Assembly (NCBI GenBank): GCA_019873665.1 | Contig: JAIOAV010000005.1 | Location: 1-64,000 of the forward strand | DNA from: Chloroflexota bacterium | GTDB taxonomy: Bacteria; Chloroflexota; Anaerolineae; JAAYEA01 | DNA: 64,000 nucleotides | Direction: 5' to 3' | Shown: one piece after another, positions 35,128 to 58,150 of the stretch | How positions within the stretch are numbered: the stretch's first letter is position 1 | How the letters are laid out: the number at the start of each line of letters is the position of its first letter | Notes under the pieces: generated by a model | Database searches by the model: none | What the model saw: only the letters and a program-made list of their open reading frames with translations | Told to the model about the DNA's origin: nothing | Program-made: the position numbers and the translations under genes

Positions 35128-36254
<1,127 letters not shown>

Positions 36255-36264
<10 letters not shown>

Positions 36265-40775: not shown

Positions 40776-40790
40776 AAAGCGAGCCATCAT

Positions 40791-41922: not shown

Positions 41923-42324
41923 ATGACCGTTTATCTGCCCGGTCTTCTGTACACCAAGACGCATGAATGGGTCAAGATCGAGCAAGAGGGGGACCAAGCC
42001 GTGGCCGTCAGCGGCATCTCCGACTATGCTCAGGAAGAGCTCAACGACGTGGTCTATGTTGAGCTACCAGAGGAGGGAGACGAGTTCGAGCAAGGGGAAA
42101 CATATGCGGTTATCGAGTCAGTCAAGGCCGCATCTGACATCCAGATGCCCCTGAGCGGCGAGATCATCGCCGTCAACCGTGCATTGGAGGACACCCCGCA
42201 ACTGGTCAACGAGGACCCCTATGGCCGGGGATGGATCATCAAGCTGCGTGTCCGCAACCAGAGCGAGGCAGATCAGTTGCTGGACGCCGCAGCGTATGAG
42301 GCGTTCATTGCCGAGGAGGGCTAA
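41923..42324 (+). CDS. gcvH: Glycine cleavage system H protein (lipoyl carrier)
   Basis: …YTKTHEWV…AVIESVKAASDIQMPLSGEI… with the lipoyl-lysine in ESVKA. Confidence 0.9.
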   Translation: MTVYLPGLLYTKTHEWVKIEQEGDQAVAVSGISDYAQEELNDVVYVELPEEGDEFEQGETYAVIESVKAASDIQMPLSGEIIAVNRALEDTPQLVNEDPYGRGWIIKLRVRNQSEADQLLDAAAYEAFIAEEG

Positions 42325-42325
42325 G

Positions 42326-43675
42326 ATGTCTTACGTTCCGCAAAACGACGCGGAACGGCAGGCGATGTTGGCAGTGCTGGGGCTGCGCGATGTGAGGGAG
42401 CTGTTCGATGACATCCCCGCCGAGTTCAGGTTCCCCGATCTGGACCTGTTTCCGCCAATGGCCGAGTTGGAGGTCATGCGGCGGCTGCAGGCGCTGAGCG
42501 AGAACAACCTGGACACCCAGCACTATATCAGTTTTTTGGGCGCAGGAGCCTATGACCACTTTGTGCCCAGCGTCGTGCGCCACATCACCGGCCGCTCCGA
42601 GTTCTACACCGCCTACACGCCGTACCAGCCGGAGATCAGCCAGGGCACGCTGCAGAGCATCTTTGAGTACCAGAGCATGATCTGCGCGCTCACCGGCATG
42701 GACGTGGCCAACGCTTCGCACTACGACGGGGCGACAGCGATGGCAGAGGCGGTGATGATGGCCTATCACGTGGGGCGCAAGAAGCGCCGCAAGGCGCTTA
42801 TCGCGCCTACCGTCCACCCCGAATACCGCGCTACCGTTCGCACCTACACGCAGAGCCTGGACATCGAGATCGTCGAAGGGCTCCCGGATATGGATCCGCT
42901 AAACCTGGACGTGGGCGCGCTGGCGGCAATGGTGGACAAGGACACCGCTTGCGTCGTCGTACAGAACCCCGATTTTTTCGGGCAGCTCTACAAGTGGGAT
43001 GCAGTGGCGGACGCGGCGCACGCCGCAGGGGCGCTCCTAGTGGTGAGCGCCGACCCCATCTCGCTGGGGCTTTTCCAGCCACCGGGCGCGTATGGTGCAG
43101 ACATCGTCATCGGCGAGGGTCAGCCGCTGGGGCTGGGCCTACAGTTCGGCGGCCCATACCTCGGCTATTTCGCCTGCCGCAAGGAGCATGTGCACCGCAT
43201 GGCAGGGCGCGTCGTGGGCGAGACGGTGGACGTGGACGGCAAGCGAGGCTATGTGCTGACGTTGACCGCCCGCGAGCAGCACATCCGCCGCGAGCGCGCC
43301 ACCTCGAACATCTGCACGAACCAGGCGCTCTGCGCGCTGGCCGCATCGGTCTATCTGGGAGCGATGGGCCGCACCGGGCTGCGTCGCATCGCCGAGTTGT
43401 GCTATCACAAGGCGCACTATGCGGCACAGCAGGTCGGCTCCTTGCCCGGCTTTGCGCTGGCAAGCCAGCAGCCCTTCTTCAAGGAATTCGTGGTCCGTTG
43501 CCCGCAGCCTGTGGACGAGATCAACGACCGCCTGCTGGATGCCAACATCATCGGCGGTTACGATCTGAGCCGCGACTATGCGCTGGAGAACCACATGCTG
43601 CTCTGCGTTACGGAGACGATAGACCGCGATGAGATAGACCATCTGGTGGCAACCCTGCGGGAGGTGACCACATGA
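42326..43675 (+). CDS. gcvPA: Glycine dehydrogenase (decarboxylating) subunit 1
   Basis: [20 protein letters not shown]… canonical GcvPA; ATG 2 nt after the gcvH stop. Confidence 0.9.
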
Positions 43676-45144
43676 CAGAGCCCCTGCTGAACGAGCTGAG
43701 TGGCGAGGGACGCTGCGGCTGCCTCTTGCCCGATCTGGACGTGCCCCCAGCCGAGCTGCCCGCCGAGTTCCTGCGAGATGATCTCCCCCTGCCAGAGGTG
43801 GGGGAGGTGGATTTGGTGCGCCACTACGTGCGGCTCTCGCAGATGAACTATGCCGTAGATACAGGCTTTTACCCGCTCGGCTCCTGCACCATGAAGTATA
43901 ACCCCAAGGTCAACGAGGAGACGGCGCGGCTGCCCGGCTTTGTGCACACGCATCCCTACCAAGATGAGCTGACCGTCCAGGGAAGCCTGCAGCTCATCTG
44001 GGAATTGCAAGAGTTCCTGCGCGAGATTGGCGGTTTTGCCGGGGTCTCGCTGCAACCGGCAGCAGGCGCGCAAGGTGAATTTGCCGGCGTGCTCATGATC
44101 CGTGCCTATCACCGGGAGCGTGGCGATGCCAAGCGCCATATCATGCTCATCCCCGATTCCGCGCACGGCACCAACCCCGCTTCCACGAGCATGAGCGGCT
44201 ATGACACGGTGGAGATCAAGTCCGACGCGCGGGGAAACGTGGACCTGGAGGACTTGCGGGCGCACTGCAACGATGAGGTTGCCGGGCTTATGCTCACCAA
44301 CCCCAATACGCTGGGCCTCTTTGATGAGCATGTCGTCGAGATCGCGGCGCTGGTACACGGCTGTGGTGGGCTGCTATATGGCGACGGCGCTAACATGAAC
44401 GCCCTGCTGGGGATCGTCAAGCCCGGAGAGCTGGGCTTTGATGTGATGCACTATAACCTGCACAAGACCTTCTCCACGCCACACGGTGGCGGCGGCCCGG
44501 GCGCTGGACCGGTCGGCGTCAATGAAAAGTTGCTTCGCTACCTACCCGGGCCGATCGTAACCCGGGTTGAGGTGAAGGGAGAACACACGCAGGAGCATGA
44601 GGACGAGGATATTCCATCTTATGTCTACATCTGGTCCGTACCAGAGGCATCCATTGGGCGAATGAAATCGTTCTACGGCAACTTTGGTGTGCTGGTCCGC
44701 GCCTATACCTATATCTGCTCCCTGGGCGCGGCAGGGTTACGCAAGGCCAGCGAGACTGCCGTTCTCAATGCCAACTATCTGCTCCACCGGCTCAAGGGGC
44801 TCTACCCACTGCCCTATGACCGCCGCTGTATGCACGAGTTCGTCCTGTCCGGACGCCGCGAGGCCGCGCCGGACATTCATACGCTGGATATCGCCAAGCG
44901 TCTGATGGATTACGGCTTCCATCCACCGACGATTTACTTCCCGCTCATCGTGCCCGAGGCGCTGATGATCGAGCCGACCGAGACGGAGAGCAAACGCACG
45001 CTGGATGCCTTCTGCGAGGCGATGCACAAGATCGCCGCCGAGGCCGTGGAACACCCGGAGCTATTGCACGATGCGCCGCACGGCACGCCGGTGCGTCGGC
45101 TGGACGAGGTGCGCGCGGCTCGTCAGCCCAAGCTCACTTGGTAA
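43672..45144 (+). CDS. gcvPB: Glycine dehydrogenase (decarboxylating) subunit 2 (PLP-binding)
   Basis: …[13 protein letters not shown]…[16 protein letters not shown]… (PLP-Lys in HKTF); ATGA overlap with gcvPA. Confidence 0.9.
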
Positions 45145-45208: not shown

Positions 45209-48200
45209 TCAGGGCAGCCTGCGCTCCCACACGCCATCGTTGGTGCCAGCATAGATCAACTGGCAGCGGACATAATCCAGCGCCAGCGCTTGCACCACGC
45301 GGTTCTCCAGCCCTTCATCGAGAGGTCTCCAGTAGAGGCCACCATTGGTCGTGATCAGCACGCCGCTCCCCGATGTCCCGGCGAATACGACCTGTGCACT
45401 GAGGGGATCCAGCGCGAGGCTATAAGTGCGGCCCAGGCCACCGACATACGTCCAGCTCTGGCCGCGGTTGTCGCTGCGAAAGACGCCGCCGTCCGTCCCC
45501 GCATAGACGATGGCCGGATTCGCCTGGCTGGTGACGATCGTCCAGACCACATCATTGCCCAGCGGCACATGCGACCACGATGCACCGCCGTTCGTCGAGC
45601 GATAGATGCCTCGGTCATAGGTGCCCGCCAGGATGAGCTGCGGATCCACCGGGTTGACGGATACCGAGCTCATCTGCAAGCTGCCGAGGCCGTTATTGAC
45701 GGCGTTCCACGACGCGCCGCCGTCAACGCTTTTGAAGACACCGGTCATCGCCGTAGCTGCATAGACGGTGCGGTCCACAGCATAGTTGGGGGAGATCGCC
45801 AGGCCGTACACATACGGGCTGGTCAGCCCGGTGTTGGCCGGCTGCCAAGTGATCCCACCATCGGTGGAACGATAGATGCCCGCATCGCCCCATGTGCCGA
45901 CAAAGACATGCCCGGCCGGCGAGGCTGTGGCCGCAATGGCATAGACAGCGACCGACGGCAGGCTGACGTTGGCGTACCACTCGCCGCCGCAGTAAAGGTG
46001 GCGGAAGAGACCACGATCGGTGCCAGCATAGACAGTCTGCGTGTTGCCCGGATCGGTCGCCAACGACTTGATCTCTACAGCCGTGAGGCCGCTCCGTTCC
46101 CAGACGACGGGATAGTCGCGGTAGATCAGCGGCAGTTGCAGCAGCCGGATCACAGTCGGCGTGGGCGTGGGGGTCTGGGTTGGCGTCTCGGTTACGGTGG
46201 GGGTCGCCGATGGCGATGGAGTCGTCGTGGCGGTCGCCGTATCCGTCGGCGTGGCAGTCGGCAGCGGCGAACCGGTCGCCGTCGGGGTCGGCGTCGGTTT
46301 GCTCTTTAGCGTGTAGCGCCACACACCACGCCCCCATGAACCGGCAAAGATCGTACGCCACACATTCGGCGAAACCGCCAGCGACGAGAGATAGGTAAAA
46401 TCAAGCCCCTCGCTAAAGGGCTCCCAACTCACGCCGGCATTCGTGGAATGATAGACACCGTGCTCGTCCGTGGCGACGTACACGGTCTGGTCAAGCAGGA
46501 ACTGCCCCAGCGTGATCGCTGCAACGCCATCATCGGGCAGGCTTGCGCCGACCGGCCGCCATTGGCCCCCGCCATCTGTCGAATAGAGCACCCCGCCGCC
46601 GCCAGCGGCAGTCGCATAGCCAGCAAAGATCGTGTGGTCGGAGATATAGCTAGGCGACAACGCTAATGAGCGGAACGTCACCTCGGCCGCCACCTCTGCC
46701 GGCCACTCTATCACCACGGGAGTCCAGAGGCTGCCGCCGTCAATAGACTTGAAAAGCTGGCCCCGATCTCCTCCCGCAAAGACCGCTTTCGTCTCGCCCG
46801 GCGGGTCAGTCTCGTTATAACCAGGCGACACAGCTACCACGCTGAACGCCGTGCCATCAGATACCAATGCTGTATTCCAGTCGCTGCCCATGTTTGTGGA
46901 CTTTAGAATGCCAGACGGGCCGGCGGCCAAGAACAAGGTCCGATCTGTGAGAAAGCGGGATGGAATGGCGAACATCTGCACGGAGGATCGCTCCGGCACG
47001 GTATAGACTTGCGTCCAAGAGATGCCGCCACGATTCGAGCGATAGACTTGACCATCCTGCCCGCCAGCGAAGACCAGGTTTGAGGCGACGCCGACACTGT
47101 GGATGGAACGCACCGCGCGCGGCAAGCCGCTGTTAGCCGTTTGCCATGTCTGCCCACCATCCGAGGACTGGAAGATGCCTCCCTCCAGCGTGCTGGCCAT
47201 CAGAAAGCGATCCAGGCCAAAGAGTGGCGAGATGCCGACAGAGGTCACATGCAAAGCGTTCAGTCCGATCGAGCTCTGCTGCCAGACATCCTGCACATTC
47301 CGCCGCAGACGGTACACACCGCGGCCCCGAGTTCCCAACCATACGGTCGAGTCGCGGTTGAAGGCTGGCGAGATAGCGACTGATTCGGCAACCGTCTCCT
47401 CGAGGCCATTGTTGAGCATCACCCACTGCAATCGGCCCAGACCATCGCGGCCGTTGGTCGCATACATGATACCACCGACCGGATAGTCCACATCCGGATA
47501 GAAGGAAGCAAAAGCGACCGCGTCGGTCTTGAACGTGGTAGAGAGCGCCACAGAGGAACAGGTGGGGAACGGGTTCAGCTGACTCCAGCCCGCGCCGTTA
47601 TCCGCTGTCCAGAGCAGCCCCTGACCCTCGGTCGCAACGAATATCGTCCGGTCAGCGGCGTAATCGGGGGAGAGGACGATCTGCCGTACGCTCGCCCCAT
47701 CCGGCACCTGGTAGAACGGATTCCAGTTAACGCCATCGTCTGATGAGCGCAGGATCCGCCCATCGCTGGTGCCCACAAAGATCACCGGGCTCCGCGGGTA
47801 TGTCGGCGCCAGGGCCACCGCGGAGATCACCACACCCGTTACCGGCGCTGCCAGGATCAAAGTCCATGTGTCGCCACCATTTGTGGAGCGATAGAGAGCG
47901 CTGGACGTGGATACCACGCTGGCGAAGACAATGTGGTCCGTGCGGAAGTTAGGAGAGATGGCAATAGCCGGAATGCCGATGCGTCCGGTCGGTTCTGGCG
48001 ATGGCATGGCGGGCGAGCAGTCACCCCATGTTCTCCCTTGATCATCAGAGCACCAGAGGCCGTCTTGGCGTGTCCCGACATAGATCATGCCACCTGTAGC
48101 ACCGCTTTCCGCCGCAAAATCCGGCGAGATCGCCATCGTCTGGATGGGCACATTCACCTGCCGGCCGGTCTCCCGCCAAGTATCAGCGCCATCATTCGAG

Positions 48201-48493
48201 ACAAAGACGCCACAAGAGGTGCTGGCGAAAAGGGTAGTGTCGCGGTTATAGGCGGGAGAGACAACGAGGCTTGAGACCGTGCCTCCCCATGGTCCGTTTG
48301 TCGTCCAATATCCCTCGGGGGTCTGCGTGGGGATCGCGGTCGGCAAGACTTGCGCGAACACACTGCCAGCAGAGTGGGGCACCATGACCCGGTTGGAGAT
48401 GCCTGGGGCGATGAGCAACGATACTACCAAAACCGCCCCGATTACGAACATCATGCCGCTAGGCCCATGTGTTGGCTCGTGCGTGTGGTTCAT
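45209..48493 (-). CDS. Secreted BNR/Asp-box repeat protein (two beta-propeller-like regions joined by a Thr/Pro-rich linker)
   Basis: >12 S-x-D-x-G-x-T/S-W Asp-box motifs (STNGGDTW, SDDGVNW, SSDGGQTW, STDGGITW, SDNRGQSW …), N-terminal signal/TM, central PTPTPTATGSPLPTATPTDTATATTTPSP linker. Confidence 0.75.
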   Translation of the reverse strand: MNHTHEPTHGPSGMMFVIGAVLVVSLLIAPGISNRVMVPHSAGSVFAQVLPTAIPTQTPEGYWTTNGPWGGTVSSLVVSPAYNRDTTLFASTSCGVFVSNDGADTWRETGRQVNVPIQTMAISPDFAAESGATGGMIYVGTRQDGLWCSDDQGRTWGDCSPAMPSPEPTGRIGIPAIAISPNFRTDHIVFASVVSTSSALYRSTNGGDTWTLILAAPVTGVVISAVALAPTYPRSPVIFVGTSDGRILRSSDDGVNWNPFYQVPDGASVRQIVLSPDYAADRTIFVATEGQGLLWTADNGAGWSQLNPFPTCSSVALSTTFKTDAVAFASFYPDVDYPVGGIMYATNGRDGLGRLQWVMLNNGLEETVAESVAISPAFNRDSTVWLGTRGRGVYRLRRNVQDVWQQSSIGLNALHVTSVGISPLFGLDRFLMASTLEGGIFQSSDGGQTWQTANSGLPRAVRSIHSVGVASNLVFAGGQDGQVYRSNRGGISWTQVYTVPERSSVQMFAIPSRFLTDRTLFLAAGPSGILKSTNMGSDWNTALVSDGTAFSVVAVSPGYNETDPPGETKAVFAGGDRGQLFKSIDGGSLWTPVVIEWPAEVAAEVTFRSLALSPSYISDHTIFAGYATAAGGGGVLYSTDGGGQWRPVGASLPDDGVAAITLGQFLLDQTVYVATDEHGVYHSTNAGVSWEPFSEGLDFTYLSSLAVSPNVWRTIFAGSWGRGVWRYTLKSKPTPTPTATGSPLPTATPTDTATATTTPSPSATPTVTETPTQTPTPTPTVIRLLQLPLIYRDYPVVWERSGLTAVEIKSLATDPGNTQTVYAGTDRGLFRHLYCGGEWYANVSLPSVAVYAIAATASPAGHVFVGTWGDAGIYRSTDGGITWQPANTGLTSPYVYGLAISPNYAVDRTVYAATAMTGVFKSVDGGASWNAVNNGLGSLQMSSVSVNPVDPQLILAGTYDRGIYRSTNGGASWSHVPLGNDVVWTIVTSQANPAIVYAGTDGGVFRSDNRGQSWTYVGGLGRTYSLALDPLSAQVVFAGTSGSGVLITTNGGLYWRPLDEGLENRVVQALALDYVRCQLIYAGTNDGVWERRLP

Positions 48494-48610: not shown

Positions 48611-48646
48611 AAAAGGGCGCGCCCAGCAGACAGGCGCGCCCCGTGG
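48611..48646 (-). terminator. Rho-independent terminator closing the long minus-strand operon
   Basis: Minus strand: ggggcgcgcc-tgtctgctg-ggcgcgccc followed by ttttctgtc, immediately after the stop of the SHMT-GcvT fusion gene. Confidence 0.65.
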
Positions 48647-48653: not shown

Positions 48654-51600
48654 CTACTCTTGCGGCTCCGCGCCGCTTCGTCTTGCCTTCTCCTCCGGCG
48701 TTGGGAATCGCTCCAGGACTGTAGCCCATTCGGGAAGCAGCACACGATCCCCTAGTTGCAGGGCATTCATCGGCTTGGCTTCAGGCATTCGGTCCGGCGC
48801 AGGAAGCGCAAAGATGCCGATCGGTGTGCCCGCCTCGTTATAGCGCTTCTCCACATATGCCATGCCCATCTGCATCCCGCCGATGAGCGTGCAGCTTGTC
48901 ACCCAGCCGATGTGTTGACCGTTGCGGTTGACGACGGGATCATCCTGCCGCAGGGCGCGTGCGCCGCTGCGGTCCACGCGGAAGCGGACCACTGCCATCG
49001 TCCGGTTGGCTTCCTGGGCAATGCACGCCTGTCGGCCAATGAAGAACGGCTTGTGGAACTTGACAAAGAGGGCGAACCCCGCCTCTGTTGGTTTGATGTC
49101 ATGCGGGCCAGCCAGCTCGTGTCCATAGAGCGGCAGCCCCGCCTCCATGCGCGTCGAGTCGCGCGCGGCCAGGCCACATGGCCGCAGGCCCTCCTTCTCT
49201 CCGTTTTCCAGCAAGAGTCGCCAGAGGCGCACCGCATGATCCGGATGTACGTACAGCTCGTAGCCAATATCCTCGCCAGTGTAACCGGTGCGCGCCACGA
49301 TGAGCGGGATGCCTGCCAGCACGGTTTCGATGAAATGCGTGCGGCGAATGCGCGCCAGCGCGCGCTGTTGGCGGGGATCTTCCGTCAAGCTCTGCAAGAT
49401 AGCCAGCGACTTGGGCCCCTGCAAAGCCAGGTCCACCAGCCGATCCGCGCCGCTTTCGGAGGACTGCAGGTTGCGGATGGTAACCGGCGCGGGCGTCTGC
49501 ATGGCGGGATTGGCGCGGTCTATACGCACCTCGCCCGCGTTCACCGCGCGCAGCCATGCCAGGTCCTTGTCGGTGTTGGCCGCATTCACCACCACCAGAT
49601 AGCGGTCCCAGCAGCGACGGTAGATCATGAGGTCATCCAACACATGTCCATCCGGATCCATCAGATAGCTATAACATGATTGGCCGTCACGTAGCCACCG
49701 CACGTAATTCGTGCTCACCAGGTCGAGGAACGCAGCGGCATGCTCCCCCGCCACCTCGAGGACGCCCATGTGCGCCACGTCAAACAAGCCTGCCGCCCGG
49801 CGCACTGCCTGGTGTTCTTCTGCCACACTGGTGTACCACACCGGCATCTCCCACCCGGCAAAGGGGATGATCTTGCGGGTGAGACGGCGATGCTCTTCAT
49901 AGAGCGGCGTTCGCTTGAGAGGCTGTTCTTTGTCTTCCCAGTGGAATTCTCGCTTATCGCTGGCGGGCAACAGCGACGCATACGCCTTTTGCCCCACAAA
50001 ATACGGTTTGGTCAGCGCGAAATAGGCAGGATATGCCTGCTGCAGATGTGCCAGCGAGAGTTTCTCGGTGGCCGATGGCAGCGGCCAGCCCAACTGCGTC
50101 CGCAGCACTGGCTCGGCCTCCGGCCCCATCACCGTCGCGCCCCTCGCGTGCAGCGCCTCCAGAAGCACCCTTCGCGCCGTCTGGTGAACCAGGATCTCGT
50201 AGCGGGGCATGTCACCGCTTGCTGCCAGTGCGACCCAGGCCATCTGGTCACGCAACGCTTCGCCGGCCTGTAGTGCGCCATGCCACCAGACGGCTGGCGA
50301 CAGCTCGACGCCTAGCCCGTGCAGGATCGCGGGCGCTGCTGTCCCCTGCAACACGATCAATGCCAGCCGATCCTCAGCCGGCGGCTCGTCGCCCAGGTCG
50401 TCTACCACCACTGGCCCCTCAACCTTGGCCAAAAGGTCATCAGGGTCAAAGACCACATACCCATCCGAGAGATCCCGCAGCCACGCGCGCACCCGCTGCC
50501 GCGTCTCGGCAGGCAAGGTCAGCCAATAGCGGTCCGATTCCGTATCGCCAGCGGACATACGCCAGAGAGTGGCGTCCGACATCAGGGTGCCATCTGGCTC
50601 CAGAAGAAGGGTGCGATCCGCCTGTTGCGGGCGGAGCTCAGCCAGATTGCGCGTCGCTACCTGCTGCAAGAACGCACTGGCGCGGTCGCCGCTGATCTGC
50701 AGGATGCCGGCGGCCGTCAGATCAACGCCCACAGCGCCCTCCGTAGTGGCTTGCAAGATGGGCGTCGCCTCCGCCACGCTCGTGGCGGAGGCATTGCTCC
50801 CCTCGGCACTATCATAGTGCGGGTAGCCGGAACCGCGCGCGGCGGTTTCGGCCGGGGTTGCCTCGGCTATTCTGTTCACTTGACGTTTGACCTCCTCAAT
50901 GATTTCGAACGGGATCTTGCCGCGAGGCATCTCGCCGCGCGACCCAATGTAGTAAAATGGGTGGACGTTGGTCACAATACGATGGATGAGGCCGGCCAGG
51001 ACGTCCATGTCCGTCGGCCCCATGCCGCGCTGCGTCAGCCACGGAGTGCCGAGCCGCACGCCGCTTGCCAGCGCTGTTACGGTGTCGCCGGGGAGGGTGT
51101 TCTTGTTGGCCACCAGCCCGCACAGTTCCATGATCCGCACAGCGATCTCGCCGCGCACCGGCAACCCATTCGGCGTCTCGATCGCGCGAAGATCGAGCAA
51201 GCACATGTGCGTATCGGTCCCGCCATAGGCGACGCGCAGCCCGCGCGACTGCAGGCCTGCCGCCAGCGCCTGGGCATTCACCACGATCCGCTGTTGGAGC
51301 TCGCGGAACTGCGGCGTGGCAGCGATTTTGAACGCGACCGCCATCGCCGCGAACTTGTTCGTGTGTGGCCCACCCTGCGCTCCGGGGAAGACGGCGGCAT
51401 CCACCAGCTTGGCCCTATCTTCATCTGTGGTCATGATCACGGCACCACGCGGCCCGCACATGGTCTTGTGCGTGGTAAAGGTGATCACATCCGCCAGTCC
51501 CACCGGCGAAGGGCAGACGCCCGCGCACACCAGGCCCGCCGTATGCGCGATATCAGCCATGAGCAGCGCGCCACAGGCATCGGCGATCTCACGGAATGCC

Positions 51601-52298
51601 TTCCAATCCGGCGCCCACGGGTAGGAGGTAAAGCCAGCGACGATCAGCTTGGGGCGGTACTCCAGCGCGAGCCGTTGAATCGCCTCATAGTCGAGGCGCT
51701 CCGTTTTGGGGTCCACGCCATACGAGACGACATGATACCGTCGGCCGGAGATGTTGAACTCGCTGCCATGCGTCAGGTGGCCGCCCTGGAAGAGATCCAT
51801 CCCCATCAGCGTGTCGCCAGCTTTCAGGAAGGCGTCATAGACGGCTAGGTTGGCGGCAGCGCCCGATAGCGGCTGCACGTTCACATAGATGTCTGCTGCA
51901 GACACATCGGGGGTGGCAAAGAGGCTGGCGCAGCGCCGCTGTGCCAAGCACTCGATAAAGTGCACATAGTCTGCGCCCTTGTAAAAGCGTCTGTCTCCAT
52001 AGCGACGATAGTTGGCCAATTGGCGGGAGAGATCGAGGATGCCCGCCTCATCCTCTTCCATCATGCGTAGCGGCGGGTAGCCCTCTGCGTAAACGTTCGT
52101 GAACACCGAGGCCAGAGCCTCGCGCACCGGCTGCGGACAGATGCTCTCCGATGGGATAAAGATGAGCCGCCGCGCCTGGCGCTCCTCCTCCAAACGGATA
52201 ATCAGGTCAATGTCCGCGTCGACATCGGCCAAGCGACGACCCCATACGTCGCGATAGTCGCCCCCCTCATGCGACGATTGACCTGTCCCTTCTGCCAT
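48654..52298 (-). CDS. Tri-domain fusion protein: serine hydroxymethyltransferase + GcvT-like folate-binding domain + complete aminomethyltransferase (glycine cleavage T protein)
   Basis: Residues ~20-470 are a full SHMT (…FIPSESICPQPVREALASVFTNVYAEGYP…, PLP-Lys motif TTHKTMCGPRGAVIM). Residues ~800-1200 are a full GcvT (RTPLYEEHRRLTRKIIPFAGWEMPVWYTSVAEEHQAVRRAAGLFDVAHMGVLEVAGEHAAAFLDLVSTNYV…). The intervening ~300 aa carry a second, degenerate GCV_T-like domain (…ILQISGDRASAFLQQVATRNLAEL…). It is a single uninterrupted 1214-codon frame. Confidence 0.8.
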   Translation of the reverse strand: MAEGTGQSSHEGGDYRDVWGRRLADVDADIDLIIRLEEERQARRLIFIPSESICPQPVREALASVFTNVYAEGYPPLRMMEEDEAGILDLSRQLANYRRYGDRRFYKGADYVHFIECLAQRRCASLFATPDVSAADIYVNVQPLSGAAANLAVYDAFLKAGDTLMGMDLFQGGHLTHGSEFNISGRRYHVVSYGVDPKTERLDYEAIQRLALEYRPKLIVAGFTSYPWAPDWKAFREIADACGALLMADIAHTAGLVCAGVCPSPVGLADVITFTTHKTMCGPRGAVIMTTDEDRAKLVDAAVFPGAQGGPHTNKFAAMAVAFKIAATPQFRELQQRIVVNAQALAAGLQSRGLRVAYGGTDTHMCLLDLRAIETPNGLPVRGEIAVRIMELCGLVANKNTLPGDTVTALASGVRLGTPWLTQRGMGPTDMDVLAGLIHRIVTNVHPFYYIGSRGEMPRGKIPFEIIEEVKRQVNRIAEATPAETAARGSGYPHYDSAEGSNASATSVAEATPILQATTEGAVGVDLTAAGILQISGDRASAFLQQVATRNLAELRPQQADRTLLLEPDGTLMSDATLWRMSAGDTESDRYWLTLPAETRQRVRAWLRDLSDGYVVFDPDDLLAKVEGPVVVDDLGDEPPAEDRLALIVLQGTAAPAILHGLGVELSPAVWWHGALQAGEALRDQMAWVALAASGDMPRYEILVHQTARRVLLEALHARGATVMGPEAEPVLRTQLGWPLPSATEKLSLAHLQQAYPAYFALTKPYFVGQKAYASLLPASDKREFHWEDKEQPLKRTPLYEEHRRLTRKIIPFAGWEMPVWYTSVAEEHQAVRRAAGLFDVAHMGVLEVAGEHAAAFLDLVSTNYVRWLRDGQSCYSYLMDPDGHVLDDLMIYRRCWDRYLVVVNAANTDKDLAWLRAVNAGEVRIDRANPAMQTPAPVTIRNLQSSESGADRLVDLALQGPKSLAILQSLTEDPRQQRALARIRRTHFIETVLAGIPLIVARTGYTGEDIGYELYVHPDHAVRLWRLLLENGEKEGLRPCGLAARDSTRMEAGLPLYGHELAGPHDIKPTEAGFALFVKFHKPFFIGRQACIAQEANRTMAVVRFRVDRSGARALRQDDPVVNRNGQHIGWVTSCTLIGGMQMGMAYVEKRYNEAGTPIGIFALPAPDRMPEAKPMNALQLGDRVLLPEWATVLERFPTPEEKARRSGAEPQE

Positions 52299-52325
52299 AG
52301 GCTAACTCCTTCATGTGATCGTCTT

Positions 52326-53516
52326 CTAGCCCAATCGCCTCTCTGGCTTGAGCTGGTTCGGGTCTCCCCAGAAAGTGTGATTCACCCAGCGCGGGATGTC
52401 CACCCCGCTCAGCCGCCAGGCGCTCTCCACAATCACAAACATATCACCAGACACCAAAGAATGCCCGCCCATCACAACCGGGATTGGGCTTTCCATGGCG
52501 GCCTCGGTAAAGGTGCGCACAAACTCGTTCTCGATCCTGTCCGGCCGCAACAAGTCCGAGTTGAACCGATCAGCAGGAGAGGGCCAAACGCCAAAGTGTA
52601 CCCAGAGGACACGGTCGTCAAAGAAAACCGCCTGAGCCATCTCCCCCAGCGTGCTAAAGAAACGGCGCGGTCCCACCTTCTCATAGTAGTAGCCCAGCAA
52701 CGAGCGCACCTCGCCGCGATCCTGTCGCCCGCTGGCCCGCATGCCGCGCTCCTCCGAGAAGACGCGCACCCGGCAGGCCGCTTCCTGTTCCATATACGCC
52801 AGCGTGGCCGAGGAGATTCGCCCTGCCAGCACGATCTCTGACGAGCGGTTGACAAAGAACTTCATGGAGCGTTGCAAGTGCGACGTGTCAAGTTTGAGGC
52901 TATTCAGATACGTCTGCAGGTTCTCGCCCAGCTCCGGCTGGAAGGTCAGCACCATCAGATCAACCGGCGTGTCAATGTCGAGCTGGCTGGCGGCCGAGCG
53001 GGGCAGCGAGACGTTGGGCAGCCCGTTCTTCTGTCCCATCCGCCAGCCGAGATCGTTGTCATAGGGCGGTGGATGGATCTCGTTGATGTGCGAGGCGGGC
53101 GTGAACGCGCAGAAATCGGTGGAGTAAAAGTTGTTGGTGATCAGCAGCGAATCTGCCTTGAGCGTCTCTTGCGCGATCTCGCGGAGCTGTTCCACCGTCA
53201 GTAGGATGCCGCTGCCCCCTCCCATGTAGATCACCTTGGGCAGCCGATATTGATTGATGATCTCGCGCAAACGAAAGCCAAAGTGAAACTTGGCGTCGGC
53301 CGGGTCCTTTTCGATCACGACCGGCCAATCGCGCAATCGCGCGATCAGATCGGTGGAATTGGTCGAGATAATGATGGGGCCAACATTCCCGGCTGCCAGC
53401 GCCTTGGCTACCATGTCAAGGGTGGACGCAACCAATGCGCCCGCCATCATCTCCTCGACCTCGCTCGCTGCGGTCACGCCGGTCATGATGATCATCGGAA
53501 CCTGATCTTGCGCCAT
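52326..53516 (-). CDS. Hypothetical two-domain protein (uncharacterised; N-terminal alpha/beta nucleotide-binding-like fold)
   Basis: 396-aa ORF sitting 28 nt upstream of the fusion gene in the same operon; no confident family match (weak resemblance to MobA/CofC-like and DUF2088-like folds). Confidence 0.4.
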   Translation of the reverse strand: MAQDQVPMIIMTGVTAASEVEEMMAGALVASTLDMVAKALAAGNVGPIIISTNSTDLIARLRDWPVVIEKDPADAKFHFGFRLREIINQYRLPKVIYMGGGSGILLTVEQLREIAQETLKADSLLITNNFYSTDFCAFTPASHINEIHPPPYDNDLGWRMGQKNGLPNVSLPRSAASQLDIDTPVDLMVLTFQPELGENLQTYLNSLKLDTSHLQRSMKFFVNRSSEIVLAGRISSATLAYMEQEAACRVRVFSEERGMRASGRQDRGEVRSLLGYYYEKVGPRRFFSTLGEMAQAVFFDDRVLWVHFGVWPSPADRFNSDLLRPDRIENEFVRTFTEAAMESPIPVVMGGHSLVSGDMFVIVESAWRLSGVDIPRWVNHTFWGDPNQLKPERRLG

Positions 53517-53555: not shown

Positions 53556-55748
53556 TCAACTTGTCGCTTGCGCACTCAACCCCACCAACTCGCTGACCAA
53601 CTGCACCAGCTCACGCGCTTTCTCTGGAGTGTCCGATTCCGCGAATATCCGCAGCAAGGGCTCCGTGCCGGAAAAGCGCAGAATCACCCAATTATCGTTC
53701 TCCAACAGGAACTTGGTCCCGTCCAGATGTGAGACATTAACCATGCGATAGGGACCCAGCGCTGGGACGCTCATCTGGCGCAGCCGTTGCGGGATAATCA
53801 CCTTCATCTCAGAAGTGGCTGGCAGGTTCTCCTCAACAGTGTATAACCGCCCGGTCAGCGCATGGACCTCTTGCAGCAGTTGCGAGATGCTCTTGCCGGT
53901 GCGCGCCAGCATCTCCACCACCAGCACGGCGGCCAGGATGCCGTCCTTGCCCATGATATGCCCGCGGATCGTCAGGCCGCCGCTGCTTTCCCCGCCCAAT
54001 AGCGCATCGGTGCGCTTCATCGCCGCGGCGATATGTTTGAACCCCACCGGCACCTCGACGCACGTTTCGCCCAGGCGGCGCGCCAGCCGATCCAGCATGT
54101 GGGTCGTAGCGAGATTACGCACGACGCCACCCTTATAGCCGCGGATCTCGTGCAAGTAGTAGTAAAGGAGCAACAGGATATCATTGATATGAATATAATC
54201 GCCGCGCTCGTCCACAATCGCAATACGATCCGCATCACCATCCATCGCCAGGCCGAGGTCATAATGCCCATCGCGTATTTCCGCGATCAGCATGTTGAGA
54301 GCTTTCAAGTCGGGCGCTGGCGAGCGACCGCCAAAGAGCGGATCGTGGCGACCGTGAATGATCACCACGCGGCAGCGCGCCTCGATCAGGATGATCTCCA
54401 GCGTCACCTGCCCCACGCCATACATTGGATCAACGATCACGCGCAATCCAGCGCGTCGGATCACATCCAGGTCCACAAACGATTCCACCGCATCCACATA
54501 CTCATTCGTAAAGTCAGCGCGGCGCACGATGCCGGCGCTTTCCGCCAGATCCAGCTCGATCTTGACAACATCCTGCATTCCGAGCTGGTTTGCCTCGTCC
54601 TCCACCTCGCGCGTCTCCTCATCCATCAGAAGGGAGCCATCCGTCAGAAACACCTTGAGCCCGTTGTATTCGGGCGGGTTGTGGCTGGCGGTGAAGGCTA
54701 ATCCCAGCACAGCATTCTGGATGCTGGCGGCATAGGTGATGAGCGGCGTCGGCGCGTCCTCGCTCAACAATACCACCGGGATGTTGTTGCCGGCGAACAC
54801 CTCCGCGGCGGCCTCCGCCGAGCGATCAGAAAGAAACCGTCGGTCATAGCCGATCACCACGCCACGCGCCTCGGTGCCCTCGCGGATGAGCTTGTTCGCC
54901 AGCGCCTGACAGAGGCGGCGCACATTGTGAAGTGTGAATCCCTCACCGATCACGGCGCGCCATCCGCCTGTGCCAAACTGGATGATATGCTCCTCTTCCA
55001 CGCGCTTGGGCCGGTAGAAGCGTTTCTGCAGGATGAACTCAGCCTCCTGCAGGTCTTGCGGCGTGTTGATGCCCAGTATCTCATCCTGATCATAGCTTTG
55101 ATAGCTCTCGACGCGATGGCCGGCGCGGATGAGGCGGTGAACCAGGTCGGTGAGCAGGTATCGCTTGGCCCCGCTCTGTGCCAACAATGCGAGCGCCGCA
55201 AAGAGCGGTTGCGCCTTGAACACATACGCGCCCAGGTTCAGCTCGCGGATCTTTTGCACCTCAGCGGAGGCATCCGCCTGCTCGATGATATCCACTACAT
55301 TCCCGCGACTATCGCGGATGATGCGCCCATAAGGAAGAGGCTGGTCGGAGATGGCGGTAAAGAGGGTCAGATCGGCACCCTTCAGGCGATGCCGATTGAG
55401 CAACCCGCGCAGCGAAGCAGGGCGAAAGAGGGGCGTGTCGCCATAGAGGATGAGCAGATCGCCGCCATAGTCTCCCAGCTGGTCGCGAGCCTGCCACACC
55501 GCATGGCCGGTGCCCAGCGGCTCATCCTGAATCACATAATGATAGGCCGCGCCGAGGTGCGCCTGTAACTTTTCGCGCTCGTATCCCGCGACGATGTAAA
55601 GATCGTCTGGGGCCACAAACCGGAGGGCGTTTTCCACCACATAGTCTATGATCGCCCTGTCGCCAAGCCGCTGCAGCAACCGGGGATAGGGCGCGCCCGC
55701 GCCCTCGCCGGGGCTGGCGGCGAGAATGATCGCTTTGAGCTGATCCAC
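53556..55748 (-). CDS. Bifunctional sugar-1-phosphate nucleotidyltransferase (GlmU-N-terminal-like) / phosphohexomutase (PGM/PMM family) fusion
   Basis: N-terminal ~245 aa NTP-transferase (ILAASPGEGAGAP…, LILYGDTPL). C-terminal ~470 aa alpha-D-phosphohexomutase with the phosphoserine loop TASHNPPEYNGLKV and metal-binding DGDADR. GTG start. Confidence 0.75.
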   Translation of the reverse strand: MDQLKAIILAASPGEGAGAPYPRLLQRLGDRAIIDYVVENALRFVAPDDLYIVAGYEREKLQAHLGAAYHYVIQDEPLGTGHAVWQARDQLGDYGGDLLILYGDTPLFRPASLRGLLNRHRLKGADLTLFTAISDQPLPYGRIIRDSRGNVVDIIEQADASAEVQKIRELNLGAYVFKAQPLFAALALLAQSGAKRYLLTDLVHRLIRAGHRVESYQSYDQDEILGINTPQDLQEAEFILQKRFYRPKRVEEEHIIQFGTGGWRAVIGEGFTLHNVRRLCQALANKLIREGTEARGVVIGYDRRFLSDRSAEAAAEVFAGNNIPVVLLSEDAPTPLITYAASIQNAVLGLAFTASHNPPEYNGLKVFLTDGSLLMDEETREVEDEANQLGMQDVVKIELDLAESAGIVRRADFTNEYVDAVESFVDLDVIRRAGLRVIVDPMYGVGQVTLEIILIEARCRVVIIHGRHDPLFGGRSPAPDLKALNMLIAEIRDGHYDLGLAMDGDADRIAIVDERGDYIHINDILLLLYYYLHEIRGYKGGVVRNLATTHMLDRLARRLGETCVEVPVGFKHIAAAMKRTDALLGGESSGGLTIRGHIMGKDGILAAVLVVEMLARTGKSISQLLQEVHALTGRLYTVEENLPATSEMKVIIPQRLRQMSVPALGPYRMVNVSHLDGTKFLLENDNWVILRFSGTEPLLRIFAESDTPEKARELVQLVSELVGLSAQATS

Positions 55749-55790: not shown

Positions 55791-55991
55791 CTATCCGCCG
55801 CCGATCATGTGCAAGACCTTGACCGTGTCTCCCTCGTAGATGGGAGACTGATCATAGGCGGCGGGCTCTACCACCATGCCGTTCACGATAACGATCAGGC
55901 AAGGCGACGTAAAGCGGCAAGCTTCAAGCAAGGTTGTAACCGTCATTCCCTCTTGCCACTCGACCTCGAACTTGTCGTTAACGCGGATCAT
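55791..55991 (-). CDS. ThiS/MoaD-family sulfur-carrier-like protein (C-terminal Gly-Gly)
   Basis: 66 aa, beta-grasp-like pattern (MIRVNDKFEVEWQEGMTVTTLLEA…IVIVNGMVV…GDTVKVLHMIGGG). Confidence 0.7.
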   Translation of the reverse strand: MIRVNDKFEVEWQEGMTVTTLLEACRFTSPCLIVIVNGMVVEPAAYDQSPIYEGDTVKVLHMIGGG

Positions 55992-58150
55992 CGGAGATGT
56001 TTCTTCACCACATCCAGCACGTCGGGAAAGTCAATACCCAACTCTGCCAGCTTTTGCGGCGTGGGCACACCATCGTGCGTCCAGCCGCGCCGCGCATATA
56101 CCGCGTCCTTGAGCAGCTCGTATTGCTGTTCACGGTGCGCCCGCAACAGCGCCATCTTTTCCGCCGTGGTCTTGCCCGCGATATCATGGCCCAGGTCGCG
56201 CAGCTGTTTGTCGTAACGCTCCTGCCGCGACTCGTACTCCTCGGCAGTTACTGGCCCCATCGAACGGTATGGGATCTCATCATCCTGGCGCAAGCCGTGT
56301 CCCAGCCGCAGGTTAAAGACACGCTGAAAGTTATAGACCTTCTCGGACATGAGGATGAGGTCATCGCCGCTGCGTACATCATCGCGCCCCGTAACGCCGA
56401 CAAAGTAATCCACATAGTTGCGGACGTGTTCCGGCACCTTGGCCGGCTCGTCGGTCTGGCGGTTGTCCGCTGGCTCGATGTCGTTCCAGATGATCTTGCA
56501 GAGGCCATTCAGCCCGAACCAGGTGCGCCACATGGGAAAGTAATGCAGCGCCTCTGCCTTGTCGGCAAAGGTCGGGATCTGGTTGTTCACCATATCCATA
56601 AAGATCAGCCACGCCTCGTCGTGCTGCGGCCCCTTGAGCGTGAGGCCATAGCCGCCCTGCATGGCCAACGACTCTTTCGTTACATACTCGGAAAACTCCA
56701 GCCCCTTAGACTCCATGCCGATGTCGTGCATGAAAGCCGGATCGCCGCCGTACTTGTCCGCAAAGAGGCGCTTCATGCGGCGCACGCCCTGGCCCACAAC
56801 GGGGCCAAAGCCCTCGCCGCGCCCCATCTGATGCAGCAGCTCCAGCACCGCCTCGGCGTTTCCCCAGCGCAGCTCCAGGCCACCGGTGATCTCCTTGTTC
56901 AGGATGCCCGCCTCGTAGCACTCCATGGCAAAGGCGGTAGCCGTGCCGAACGAGATGGTGTCAATGCCATAGGTGTCGCAGTAATAGTTGATCTCGATCA
57001 CCGCTTCCGGGTCGAATATCCCCAGGTTGGAGCCGCATCCGGCAATCGTCTCGTATTCAGGCCCATCTACGCCCACAACCCTGCCCTTGTAGGGGCCGCT
57101 CTTGAGCGTGAATCCGTCCACACGTTTGGAGCAGGCCATGGTGCAGCCATACCAGCAGCCATCAGGAATGCCCTGTGTGAACAGCTCGCAAAAGACCTTG
57201 GCCGAGAGGCGACCGGCCTCCGGGTGCTCCCCATACTTGAAGTTATGTGTAGGGAGCAGGTCATAATCGTTCATGATCTGGATAAGGTGCGATGTGCCCA
57301 CCGCGCGCATGTGGCGCTGCAAATGATCCAGGTCATGCATCTCGCGATGCATCTTGAGCCCGACGCGGCGCACGCGGTTGAGGTCAGCAGGTTGATTCGA
57401 GTCGCTGCGCACGTCGCGCCGCTTGACGACGATGGCCTTGATCCGTTTGTCGCGCAGCACAGTGCCGGTGCCGCCGCGTCCCGCCTGCTTGAAACGGAGA
57501 GCGCGGCGACGGTTGTCGTACCAGCTAAAGTTGAGACAGCCCATGCGCGTATGCTCTGCGCCGCTGCCGGCGGCCACCACCGAGATCGCCTCTCTGTCAT
57601 CCTCGGTCCGGGCATACTTGTCCATCATCTGCTGACCGATGACGTGCGCGTCCGCCACGCCCTCGGGCGCCCCTTCGATGCGCACAATGCCCGTGTCACC
57701 ATCTATGTAGATGACGACATCGCGCGAAGCCTTGCCCTGGATCTCCAGCGCGTCCCAACCGGCGAACTTGAGCAGGGGACCAAAGTGGCCACCCACGTTG
57801 CTGTCAATCACCGAGTCGGTGAGTGGAGAGATGCTGACCACGATGGACTTGCCCGAGCCAGGGAAGGTGGTGGTGCCGCCCAGCGGACCAGCGGAGATAA
57901 CGATCTCGTTCTCGGGATCGTCCCAACGGGTGTCATCGTGAATCCCATGCCACAAAAGCCAGAGGCCAAAGCCACGCCCCCCGATAAAGAGATCCTTCAT
58001 CAACTTGGTCACCGGCTTGGCAGCGATAGTGTTATCCGACACATTGACATACAGCGTCTGGCCAGCATAGCCCCGCCATACCTCAGGGCGCTCATAGAGA
58101 AACTCGGCCAGGGGTTCGCTCGTTTCCGTCAGCCAGTCGTTTGCGCTCAT
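55988..58150 (-). CDS. aor: Aldehyde:ferredoxin oxidoreductase (tungsten/molybdopterin AOR family) catalytic subunit
   Basis: 720-aa AOR-family protein (…DLFIGGRGFGLWLL…, Cys ligands for the [4Fe-4S] …CWYGCTMAC…, pterin-binding regions); start at MSANDW with ATGA overlap with the upstream ferredoxin gene. Confidence 0.85.
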   Translation of the reverse strand: MSANDWLTETSEPLAEFLYERPEVWRGYAGQTLYVNVSDNTIAAKPVTKLMKDLFIGGRGFGLWLLWHGIHDDTRWDDPENEIVISAGPLGGTTTFPGSGKSIVVSISPLTDSVIDSNVGGHFGPLLKFAGWDALEIQGKASRDVVIYIDGDTGIVRIEGAPEGVADAHVIGQQMMDKYARTEDDREAISVVAAGSGAEHTRMGCLNFSWYDNRRRALRFKQAGRGGTGTVLRDKRIKAIVVKRRDVRSDSNQPADLNRVRRVGLKMHREMHDLDHLQRHMRAVGTSHLIQIMNDYDLLPTHNFKYGEHPEAGRLSAKVFCELFTQGIPDGCWYGCTMACSKRVDGFTLKSGPYKGRVVGVDGPEYETIAGCGSNLGIFDPEAVIEINYYCDTYGIDTISFGTATAFAMECYEAGILNKEITGGLELRWGNAEAVLELLHQMGRGEGFGPVVGQGVRRMKRLFADKYGGDPAFMHDIGMESKGLEFSEYVTKESLAMQGGYGLTLKGPQHDEAWLIFMDMVNNQIPTFADKAEALHYFPMWRTWFGLNGLCKIIWNDIEPADNRQTDEPAKVPEHVRNYVDYFVGVTGRDDVRSGDDLILMSEKVYNFQRVFNLRLGHGLRQDDEIPYRSMGPVTAEEYESRQERYDKQLRDLGHDIAGKTTAEKMALLRAHREQQYELLKDAVYARRGWTHDGVPTPQKLAELGIDFPDVLDVVKKHLR

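Follow-up and report, generated by a model that had tools for sequence, protein, structure and literature searches.

Within the 64-kb window (the whole stretch of DNA that was analysed), a single minus-strand gene encodes a protein in which an intact serine hydroxymethyltransferase (SHMT; aa ~15-480) is followed by a GcvT-derived middle domain (aa ~510-792) and a complete GcvT (aa 793-1214). The features of the gene and its surroundings are listed in Table 1. The initial annotation had described the protein as a complete SHMT, a degenerate GCV_T-like domain and a complete GcvT, and this three-part anatomy was borne out by profile searches against Pfam and NCBIfam. The upstream neighbour, orf396, combines a CofC/FbiD-like nucleotidyltransferase fold with one further domain and is possibly co-transcribed with the fusion gene. 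At a distance of 3.5 kb from the fusion gene lies a lipS1-lipS2-gcvH-gcvPA-gcvPB cluster, in which lipS1 and lipS2, encoding a two-component lipoyl synthase, are directly upstream of gcvH. As had been noted before, this gcv operon is without a gcvT of its own. No second SHMT or GcvT module is present elsewhere within the window. Nor does the window contain sdaA, folD, fhs or a gene for the L protein. Genes for an aldehyde:ferredoxin oxidoreductase and a 2-oxoacid:ferredoxin oxidoreductase are also present in the window.

Table 1. Features of the fusion gene and the neighbouring genes in the window
Feature	Position	Strand	Basis or remarks
lipS1	39927-40775	+	NF053742, 274 bits (cut-off 230)
lipS2	40791-41819	+	NF053743, 346 bits (cut-off 270)
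gcvH	41923..42324	+	PF01597, E 8e-43; lipoyl-lysine motif IESVKAAS
gcvPA	42329..43675 (start approximate)	+	PF02347, E 5.5e-131
gcvPB	43672..45144	+	PF21478 and PF02347
Terminator-like hairpin	48614..48642	-	Directly after the stop codon of the fusion gene; 12-bp stem with 9 G-C pairs, then a T-rich tail
Whole fusion gene	48654..52298	-	1214 aa and stop codon; one uninterrupted ORF; ATG start
Complete GcvT module (aa 793-1214)	48657..49922	-	TIGR00528, NF001567, PDB matches
Asp889 codon	49632..49634	-	Aligned to Asp96 of T. maritima T protein (1woo); invariant in the family
Middle pseudo-T domain (aa 510-792)	49923..50771	-	PF01571, hhalign, high pLDDT
Second half of middle domain (aa ~658-728)	50115..50327	-	Low conservation, gaps; BLASTP against L022
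Best-conserved stretch of middle domain (aa ~605-635)	50394..50486	-	Family alignments
Linker from SHMT to middle domain (aa 481-509)	50772..50858	-	Poorly conserved, many gaps; probably flexible
SHMT module (aa 1-480)	50859..52298	-	PF00464, NF000586, PDB alignments, AF2 secondary structure
Lys278 codon (PLP Schiff-base lysine)	51465..51467	-	PDB SHMT alignment; in TTHKT, invariant in 119 family members
SHMT insert of ~24 aa (aa 79-102)	51993..52064	-	Gap in alignments to PDB SHMTs
Shine-Dalgarno AAGGAG	52306..52311	-	7 nt upstream of the start codon (52298); read from sequence
orf396	52326..53516	-	Conserved upstream neighbour of the fusion gene; 28-nt gap

The fusion protein scored 387 bits with PF00464 (cut-off 27) and 413 bits with the NCBIfam SHMT model NF000586 (cut-off 335), and its SHMT module is ~43-44% identical to the SHMT of Thermus thermophilus. 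In the AF2 model, the canonical fold spans aa ~20-445, after which aa 445-480 form a C-terminal beta-hairpin and a helix that are specific to the family. Alignments to PDB structures located the PLP and substrate residues at Y70, E72, Y106, H174, D249, H252, T275-K278, R284 and R415. In the numbering of the E. coli enzyme, equivalents of Y55, E57, Y65, H126, D200, H203, T226-H228-K229, R235, N347 and R363 are present. These key residues are invariant or nearly so among the 119 homologues. The module has the same fold as bacterial GlyA (PF00464; 2DKJ, 1DFO) and all the PLP, substrate and folate residues that were checked, but differs from it in the additional C-terminal hairpin and helix, in the ~730 further residues to which it is joined, and in a conserved 24-aa insert that separates the YAEGYP motif from the conserved Tyr106. 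The insert occurs family-wide, with a mean column conservation of 0.79 and with R98, R99, Y100 and D102 invariant. Judging from its PLP, substrate and folate residues, the N-terminal module would be a catalytically intact PLP-dependent SHMT, and it probably dimerises like bacterial SHMTs.

For the C-terminal module, TIGR00528, the equivalog model of gcvT, gave 310 bits (cut-off 235.85; profile positions 1-341 of 362) and NF001567 gave 353 bits (cut-off 300); in the PDB it matched 1yx2 (E 1e-72) and 1woo (E 3e-61). PF08669 (GCV_T_C) scored 24.5 bits in the whole protein, just under its cut-off of 25.9, but the alignments to PDB chains and to the full-length models of GcvT extend across the region where the C-terminal barrel of the three-domain cloverleaf would lie, and AF2 predicts a beta-rich domain of high pLDDT there. 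The N-terminal arm of T proteins is intact, and the motifs DD (aa 888-889), VVNAAN, TGYTGE and ARDxxRxEAGLPLYG are invariant in the family. Asp96 of T. maritima, with which Asp889 is aligned, corresponds to Asp97 in E. coli and Asp101 in human, the residue proposed to activate N10 of folate. Like canonical GcvT (TIGR00528; 1WOO, 1YX2, 3A8I), to which they align full length, the C-terminal 420 aa possess the folate-binding motifs as well as the catalytic Asp and adjoin gcvH and gcvP genes; unlike canonical GcvT, they lie covalently behind an SHMT and a truncated second T copy and end in an extension of ~50 aa, and they contain a 21-aa insertion relative to GcvT of B. subtilis. The C-terminal module can be regarded as a T protein, with predicted aminomethyltransferase activity.

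The match of the whole protein to GCV_T (313 bits) is spread over two stretches. Searched alone, the middle 310 aa matched PF01571 with 64 bits (E 1.4e-17, cut-off 25.6, profile positions 35-237 of 255). Aligned by hhalign to the family's own T module, the middle domain gave a probability of 100% and an E of 1.6e-66 at 24% identity (template columns 27-321). In neither the profile search nor hhalign did the middle domain extend over the N-terminal arm or the C-terminal barrel, which in GcvT complete the folate/lipoyl cavity; there is no barrel because the next T module begins directly after the KPYFVGQ motif. By these alignments, the middle domain is an internal duplicate of GcvT domains 1 and 2. 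In the window, only D575 is left of the DD pair (S574-D575), NxxN has become PxxT with the loss of both Asn, and the GYTGE and ARD motifs have been lost; P0015, L004 and some other relatives retain most of the catalytic and folate motifs in this domain.

Conservation within the middle domain is uneven. Residues ~605-635 follow the consensus AWLRGLSDGYxLFDxEDIFRKVEGPVVVEDL, with W606, D612, F617, D618, K625, G628 and P629 invariant. Of the 65 loci with a whole fusion, 26 lack the second half, and the lengths of the middle spacer are bimodal. Because this half is deleted in the closest relative of the window sequence (L022, BLASTP) and in a short-form clade, it is dispensable. No complete family member is without the middle piece, however: a core of ~100 aa with the seven invariant residues is always kept. 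The domain is a decaying relic of a tandem T-module duplication that comprised domains 1 and 2 only. Its most likely role is that of a folded spacer, or of a scaffold for the active modules on either side; against this, the strictly conserved 30-aa motif suggests some role more specific than spacing.

In the AF2 model of the fusion protein, a pTM of 0.84 and a pLDDT of 85.6 suggest that the domains are in a defined arrangement. In the linker between SHMT and the middle domain, pLDDT drops under 50 over model residues 485-494 (aa 499-508 of the protein); the poor conservation and low confidence of this linker would fit a rigid machine and a loose tether equally well. At the protein level, the family alignments show conserved junction regions, e.g. 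KPYFVGQ...EFxW...RTPLYEEH.

Relatives are numerous. The SHMT-middle-GcvT architecture was found in >240 distinct protein clusters at 90% identity from NCBI, JGI, ENA and Logan assemblies, and one peptide pattern, the most conserved motif of the middle domain, retrieved relatives in 272 GTDB species genomes, from which 80 loci were kept. The whole fusion lies in one ORF at 65 of these loci; the others are cut by contig ends, save two that are split by an apparent frameshift (L041 and L049). Module order was identical in every full-length match (149 library representatives examined). Hundreds of uncultured bacteria thus carry the fusion, most of them Chloroflexota, and the hosts include Bipolaricaulota/Acetothermia, Aerophobetes and Anaerolineae; all homologues found came from MAGs or metagenomes. 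The initial annotation had known of no description of the architecture. That holds for the full-text literature searched, in which no description of an SHMT-pseudo-T-GcvT fusion was found, and for curated family models, none of which covers it; but the architecture is not rare, and the database entries name it only 'GcvT' or 'glycine hydroxymethyltransferase'. The gene product is best seen as a genuine three-module enzyme, conserved among these relatives, which joins known enzymes in an arrangement for which we found no published description.

The gene neighbourhood of relatives links the fusion with glycine cleavage. The fusion is adjacent to gcvH-gcvPA-gcvPB in ~21 related loci. It precedes these genes on the same strand in L005, L017, L034, L042, L055, L056, L059, L062, L077 and L078, and is convergent with them in 7 further loci. 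The position directly upstream of gcvH-gcvPA-gcvPB is the canonical one for gcvT, and it is filled by the fusion in at least 10 genomes; no separate gcvT was found at any of the 80 GTDB fusion loci. The earlier suggestion that the fusion is the source of T protein is therefore strongly backed by synteny. A second SHMT can accompany the fused one: in L077, the operon that contains the fusion also includes a stand-alone glyA.

We consider it probable that SHMT and T protein on one chain couple glycine cleavage to serine formation via 5,10-methylene-THF. The T module, whose partners would be the lipoyl-H protein and PA/PB decarboxylase encoded by genes of their own, would convert aminomethyl-H protein and THF into 5,10-methylene-THF and NH3; the SHMT module of the same chain would then transfer the C1 unit from methylene-THF to a second glycine, yielding serine and regenerating THF. 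With the P, H and L proteins, the net reaction would be 2 Gly + NAD+ -> Ser + CO2 + NH3 + NADH. We infer both activities, their coupling through folate and the physiological direction.

Comparable couplings are known. Plant photorespiratory GDC/SHMT and the gcvH2-gcvP2-glyA2-sdaA-gcvT2 operon of P. aeruginosa, in which the glycine cleavage system and GlyA act together in glycine catabolism (PMC4894688), likewise convert two glycines into serine via 5,10-methylene-THF, as proposed for the fusion; but there the enzymes are separate polypeptides, whereas here T protein and SHMT form one chain with no linked sdaA. In dimethylglycine oxidase/dehydrogenase, the alpha subunit of sarcosine oxidase and TMAO demethylase, a GcvT-type folate module is joined covalently to a partner active site with which it exchanges C1 units, and such an exchange is predicted for the fusion. 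Several of these enzymes pass the C1 unit along an internal cavity. The partner in dimethylglycine oxidase, sarcosine oxidase and TMAO demethylase is a flavin or metal oxidase releasing iminium or formaldehyde, whereas in the fusion it is another folate enzyme, and the C1 unit passing between the sites would be folate-bound. DHFR-TS and formiminotransferase-cyclodeaminase likewise combine two successive folate-dependent activities in a single chain, as is predicted for the fusion. Channelling has been reported for these enzymes, which provide a model for the movement of a folate intermediate between sites; their folds are unrelated to those of the fusion, in which channelling is hypothetical.

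A possible, if less persuasive, reading is that the fusion merely secures a 1:1 ratio and proximity of the two enzymes, with folate diffusing freely and the middle domain being debris kept as a linker. Fusions of enzymes of the same pathway are common, and in plant mitochondria GDC and SHMT couple through the free folate pool without any fusion; the coupled reaction can therefore do without one. The shrinkage of the middle domain in many lineages and the low conservation and pLDDT of the linker are consistent with this reading, whereas the middle core with its seven invariant residues, never lost in complete members, and the conserved family-specific inserts of the SHMT module and the T module are against it, and the pTM argues for fixed contacts between domains.

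An anabolic role is unlikely. Together with the P, H and L proteins, the fusion would act as glycine synthase plus SHMT, in the reductive glycine pathway or in serine/glycine biosynthesis from C1 units, its modules both drawing on one supply of methylene-THF. All steps of the scheme are reversible, the host lineages named above are anaerobic, the window carries the ferredoxin oxidoreductase genes, and no glycine riboswitch, often a mark of catabolic gcv operons, was found. However, in this direction the modules would have no intermediate in common apart from the shared cofactor, which gives no obvious kinetic logic for a fusion, and fhs, folD, formate dehydrogenase and serine deaminase genes are neither linked in the window nor recurrent in the 80 loci. 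The C1 hand-over put forward in the initial annotation makes chemical sense where 5,10-methylene-THF is produced by one module and used by the other, as in 2 Gly -> Ser + CO2 + NH3 run in either direction, but not for the reductive glycine route: there, T protein and SHMT both consume methylene-THF, so that the fusion would give co-localisation, not channelling.

It is highly improbable that the GcvT-fold modules form a THF-dependent demethylase acting on another methylamine or methyl donor, on the model of DmdA, LigM or the folate domains found in sarcosine and dimethylglycine oxidases, with SHMT fixing the methylene-THF into serine. Many demethylases use the GcvT fold, and the middle domain might act as a further module for substrate binding; but the matches to the TMAO demethylase, SoxA and DmdA models are far under the cut-offs (181 against 1100, 148 against 1164 and 80 against 410), whereas the T module exceeds that of the gcvT equivalog, retains the N-terminal arm and motifs of T proteins, and replaces gcvT beside gcvH-gcvPA-gcvPB in many genomes. 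That two or three adjacent genes were wrongly merged, a concern to which only the two frameshift-split loci of the 80 would lend support, is effectively refuted, because the window, 65 independent GTDB species genomes and the >240 clusters all contain the same continuous ORF, end to end, and the junctions are conserved; the join is real.

Within the favoured scheme of glycine cleavage coupled to serine formation, a stronger version, which we regard as doubtful, is a self-contained 'glycine-to-serine' machine, in which a bound (polyglutamyl)folate shuttles C1 units between the T and SHMT sites and the W-D-F-D-K-G-P core of the middle domain serves as a folate anchor or a dock for H protein. If so, bulk methylene-THF would never be released, and the CofC-like orf396 product might modify or supply a cofactor for it.

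Based on the Pfam and NCBIfam assignments, the anatomy proposed for the 1214-aa protein in the initial annotation, a complete serine hydroxymethyltransferase (SHMT) followed by a degenerate GCV_T domain and a complete GcvT (T protein), is correct. In the whole protein, SHMT was recognised by PF00464 (387 bits) and NF000586 (413 bits, cut-off 335), and GcvT by TIGR00528 (310 bits, cut-off 236), NF001567 (353 bits, cut-off 300) and PF01571 (313 bits, split over two stretches); the C-terminal barrel scored 24.5 bits with PF08669, slightly below the cut-off of 25.9. Both outer modules are members of their respective families, SHMT and GcvT. The middle 310 aa alone matched PF01571 at an E-value of 1.4e-17 (64 bits, profile positions 35-237 of 255). 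Beyond the hairpin that follows the gene lies a site resembling a promoter, placed to serve the neighbouring gene.

Features of the fusion locus, its surroundings and two related loci (coordinates refer to the sequence named in the second column)
Feature	Sequence	Coordinates	Strand	Description
Fusion gene	window	48654-52298	-	1214 aa, ATG start, uninterrupted (ORF listing)
SHMT module	window	50859-52298	-	N-terminal part of the fusion
Ribosome-binding site	window			AAGGAG, 7 nt 5' of the fusion ATG (sequence reading)
Hairpin	window			12 bp, GC-rich, with T tail, directly 3' of the fusion stop codon
lipS1-lipS2	window	39927-41819	+	NF053742 274 bits, NF053743 346 bits
Repeat protein	window	45209-48493	-	1094 aa, BNR/Sortilin-Vps10/Ycf48-like repeats, Thr/Pro-rich linker; between fusion and gcv operon
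orf396	window	52326-53516	-	conserved neighbour gene upstream of the fusion
Sugar-phosphate mutase-like gene	window	53556-55748	-	730 aa, N-terminal NTP_transferase and complete four-domain phosphogluco/phosphomannomutase; immediately upstream of orf396
Aldehyde:ferredoxin oxidoreductase	window	55988-58345	-	
2-Oxoacid:ferredoxin oxidoreductase subunit	window	35748-37592	+	
Xanthine-dehydrogenase-family protein	window	61281-63998	-	molybdopterin protein with fused 2Fe-2S domain
ORF	window	1172-3394	-	741 aa, no Pfam family at E <= 1e-5
ORF	window	32508-33914	-	469 aa, no Pfam family at E <= 1e-5; overlaps neighbouring ORFs, may be spurious
fusion-gcvH-glyA-gcvPA-gcvPB	L077 (Ca. Aquidulcis, Limnocylindria)	8501-17223		
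Tandem whole-fusion paralogues	L064	8519-11767, 13766-17074		

Aligned to solved SHMTs, the SHMT module carries the PLP lysine motif TTHKT with Lys278 and equivalents of E. coli Y55, E57, Y65, H126, D200, H203, R235, N347 and R363. All of these, TTHKT included, are invariant or nearly so in 119 family members. The T module aligned over its full length to the T proteins of B. subtilis, T. maritima and E. coli. Its Asp889 corresponds to T. maritima Asp96, and the motifs DD, VVNAAN, TGYTGE and ARDxxRxEAGLPLYG are invariant across the family. Judging from these residues, both modules look catalytically intact. Two features of the SHMT module are specific to the family: an insert of 24 aa (aa 79-102), which is conserved, and a hairpin and a helix at its C-terminal end (aa 445-480). 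Against the 496-position 'long SHMT' model NF010094 (cut-off 735), this module scored only 309 bits, with aa 163-480 of the protein on profile positions 170-483; the match hints that the insert and the hairpin/helix may be common to a stand-alone long-SHMT family.

An AF2 model of aa 15-1214, built with 119 aligned sequences, had a mean pLDDT of 85.6 and a pTM of 0.84. For a chain of 1200 residues this is a high pTM, and it suggests that the inter-domain contacts are fixed. Low confidence was confined to the linker (model residues 485-494) and to N-terminal SHMT segments, which in real SHMTs pack across the dimer. Employing Foldseek with the full model against the PDB, we recovered SHMT chains only, covering ~30% of the model at a query TM-score of ~0.3, and no solved structure with the whole fusion architecture.

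The radical-SAM lipoyl synthase LipS1/LipS2 was initially characterised in Thermococcus. The genes for this two-component enzyme (PMC9585515, PMC10332631), lipS1 and lipS2, lie in the window immediately 5' of gcvH, gcvPA and gcvPB, forming a lipoylation and glycine cleavage system (GCS) cluster in a Chloroflexota genome; gcvH retains the lipoyl-lysine motif. The gcv operon had been described as lacking a gcvT of its own, and none is present from lipS1 to gcvPB. Neither a second SHMT nor a second GcvT was found within the 64-kb window, and a separate gcvT was absent from all 80 GTDB loci compared. Among the related loci, 10 have gcvH-gcvPA-gcvPB directly downstream of the fusion and in the same orientation, so that the fusion sits where gcvT canonically does; in 7 more, the fusion and the gcv genes are convergent, as in the window. 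The genomic context points to the fusion as the T protein, in place of gcvT.

Neighbour clustering of the 80 loci yielded gcvH, gcvPA, gcvPB and orf396 as the only frequent neighbours, with no recurrent sdaA, folD, fhs or lpd; none of the latter four was found linked in the window either, and an Rfam search of the window at gathering thresholds returned no glycine riboswitch or other RNA family. In the Ca. Aquidulcis locus, the glyA product is a canonical SHMT that lacks the insert of the family, and the gene order there shows that a stand-alone SHMT can coexist with the fusion. Another locus, L064, carries the whole fusion twice in tandem. At the loci of two distant homologues (L001 and L003), plsX-fabF-thioesterase genes lie upstream and LarA and glycerate kinase genes downstream, with no gcv linkage. 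The 1094-aa repeat protein is kept, among the related loci, only in L022, an uncultured Anaerolineae bin. The two ferredoxin oxidoreductase genes and the xanthine-dehydrogenase-family gene of the window point to an anaerobic or facultative host.

In the fusion, SHMT and T protein, both of them intact, form a single chain that stands in the place of gcvT. The T module would convert aminomethyl-H protein and THF into 5,10-methylene-THF and NH3, and the SHMT module would use the methylene-THF with a second glycine to form serine and THF. The folate cofactor would cycle inside one protein, with the net reaction 2 Gly -> Ser + CO2 + NH3 (+ NADH). The same GCS/SHMT pairing operates in photorespiration. 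It is also found in the gcvH2-gcvP2-glyA2-sdaA-gcvT2 operon of P. aeruginosa, which serves growth on glycine (PMC4894688). Channelling in a reductive-glycine-type route, as suggested in the initial annotation, did not hold: both modules consume methylene-THF there, so the fusion would channel nothing. Only the 2 Gly -> Ser coupling, or its exact reverse, hands the folate-bound one-carbon unit from module to module.

Fusion for co-expression of the two enzymes, with no channelling, is a tenable if somewhat unlikely alternative. An anabolic, reductive role is possible at a rather low probability, as it offers no obvious kinetic logic for joining the modules. That the protein is a demethylase instead of a GCS T protein is very unlikely, and this candidate was rejected on the gcvT equivalog scores and the gcv synteny.

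When 5.8 billion clustered proteins were searched, 120 matched at full length, the protein of the window among them; they have 1096-1243 aa, 53-100% identity and the same Pfam pair; a second search, with a Thermoflexales member as the query, gave a further 120 clusters. With so many SHMT-GcvT fusions found, the architecture is not rare. The homologues from both searches all derive from metagenome-assembled genomes (MAGs) or metagenomes, and the matches to the Thermoflexales query included no cultured host. In the databases, these proteins are named only 'glycine cleavage system aminomethyltransferase GcvT', 'serine hydroxymethyltransferase' or 'glycine hydroxymethyltransferase'. A peptide pattern of the middle domain, [LM][SA]DGY[VI][LV]FD, had matches in 272 GTDB species-representative genomes. 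SHMT, the middle piece and GcvT share a single ORF in 65 of the 80 loci kept; the others are cut by contig ends, except for 2 split by frameshifts. A profile of the middle domain gave 150 matches at E <= 1e-30 in 1.84 billion cluster representatives, and the module order was identical in every full-length member among 149 representatives examined. The closest GTDB relative of the window, L022, shows ~70% identity and the same gene order. A merged-gene artefact, with a fusion ORF that is not genuine, can be dismissed, being ruled out by conservation of the continuous ORF across protein clusters and GTDB loci.

The hosts belong mainly to Chloroflexota (Anaerolineae, Caldilineae, Thermoflexales, Chloroflexia, Dehalococcoidia and Limnocylindria), with others in Planctomycetota, Aerophobetes, Bipolaricaulota/Acetothermia and Xenobia. 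A full bacterial-type fusion also occurs in four MAGs (L016, L020, L033 and L043) that bear a Thermoplasmata or Methanomassiliicoccales label, one of them a 5.16-Mb 'chromosome' and another a 3.2-Mb one; either the gene has moved horizontally into archaea, or the genomes are mislabelled or misbinned.

By profile-profile comparison, the middle region of the family matched the family's own T module with a probability of 100% (E 1.6e-66, 24% identity) over T-module columns 27-321, that is, domains 1 and 2 without the N-terminal arm and the barrel. An insertion that separates the T module of the family from the B. subtilis enzyme is also present in the middle duplicate, which points to tandem duplication within the lineage as its probable origin. 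In some members, for example proteins P0014, P0015 and P0017 and loci L004 and L053, the middle domain still has the segment 'LLDEHRxLGAE...GW.VPLHY' at its N-terminus, along with most of the T motifs. In the window, D575 is the sole survivor of the DD pair, and the NxxN, GYTGE and ARD motifs are gone; the domain is homologous to GCV_T but lacks the barrel, arm and motifs of a functional T protein. The spacer between SHMT and T modules is bimodal in length, either 177-235 aa (26 loci) or 294-345 aa (39 loci), and L022 lacks the residues equivalent to aa ~658-728 of the window protein. A core of ~100 aa is never lost and probably has a specific role; its final stretch reads AWLRGLSDGYxLFDxEDIFRKVEGPVVVEDL, in which W, D, F, D, K, G and P do not vary. 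Because the motifs have decayed and the spacer has shrunk in many loci while the core is always kept, we read the middle domain as a probable decaying pseudo-enzyme serving as a scaffold.

One-carbon units enter and leave folate metabolism chiefly through two systems, SHMT and the glycine cleavage system. Coupling between these is the basis of photorespiration, of glycine catabolism in bacteria and of the reductive glycine pathway, a current target of engineering for formate and CO2 assimilation. A full-text literature search, with most subscription journals outside its coverage, returned no description of an SHMT-GcvT fusion. NCBIfam release 20 holds dedicated models for some other fusions, such as LplA-LipA, and none for this one, for which the PGAP name is plain GcvT. 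The fusion is an undescribed but widespread domain architecture built from textbook enzyme families; it joins two enzymes of the same pathway and is not a new kind of system. Calls of 'GcvT' only or 'SHMT' only cause pathway completeness to be mis-scored in genomes that carry it, which bears on the one-carbon metabolism of Chloroflexota. For enzymology, it is a neat case in which folate channelling could be tested, and a ready test of whether methylene-THF hand-over is kinetically useful; for engineering, it is a candidate pathway part. Uncultured Chloroflexota and several other phyla possess in it a natural covalent T-SHMT enzyme, in which the decaying T duplicate may represent a catalytic domain becoming a scaffold, with lineages caught at different stages.
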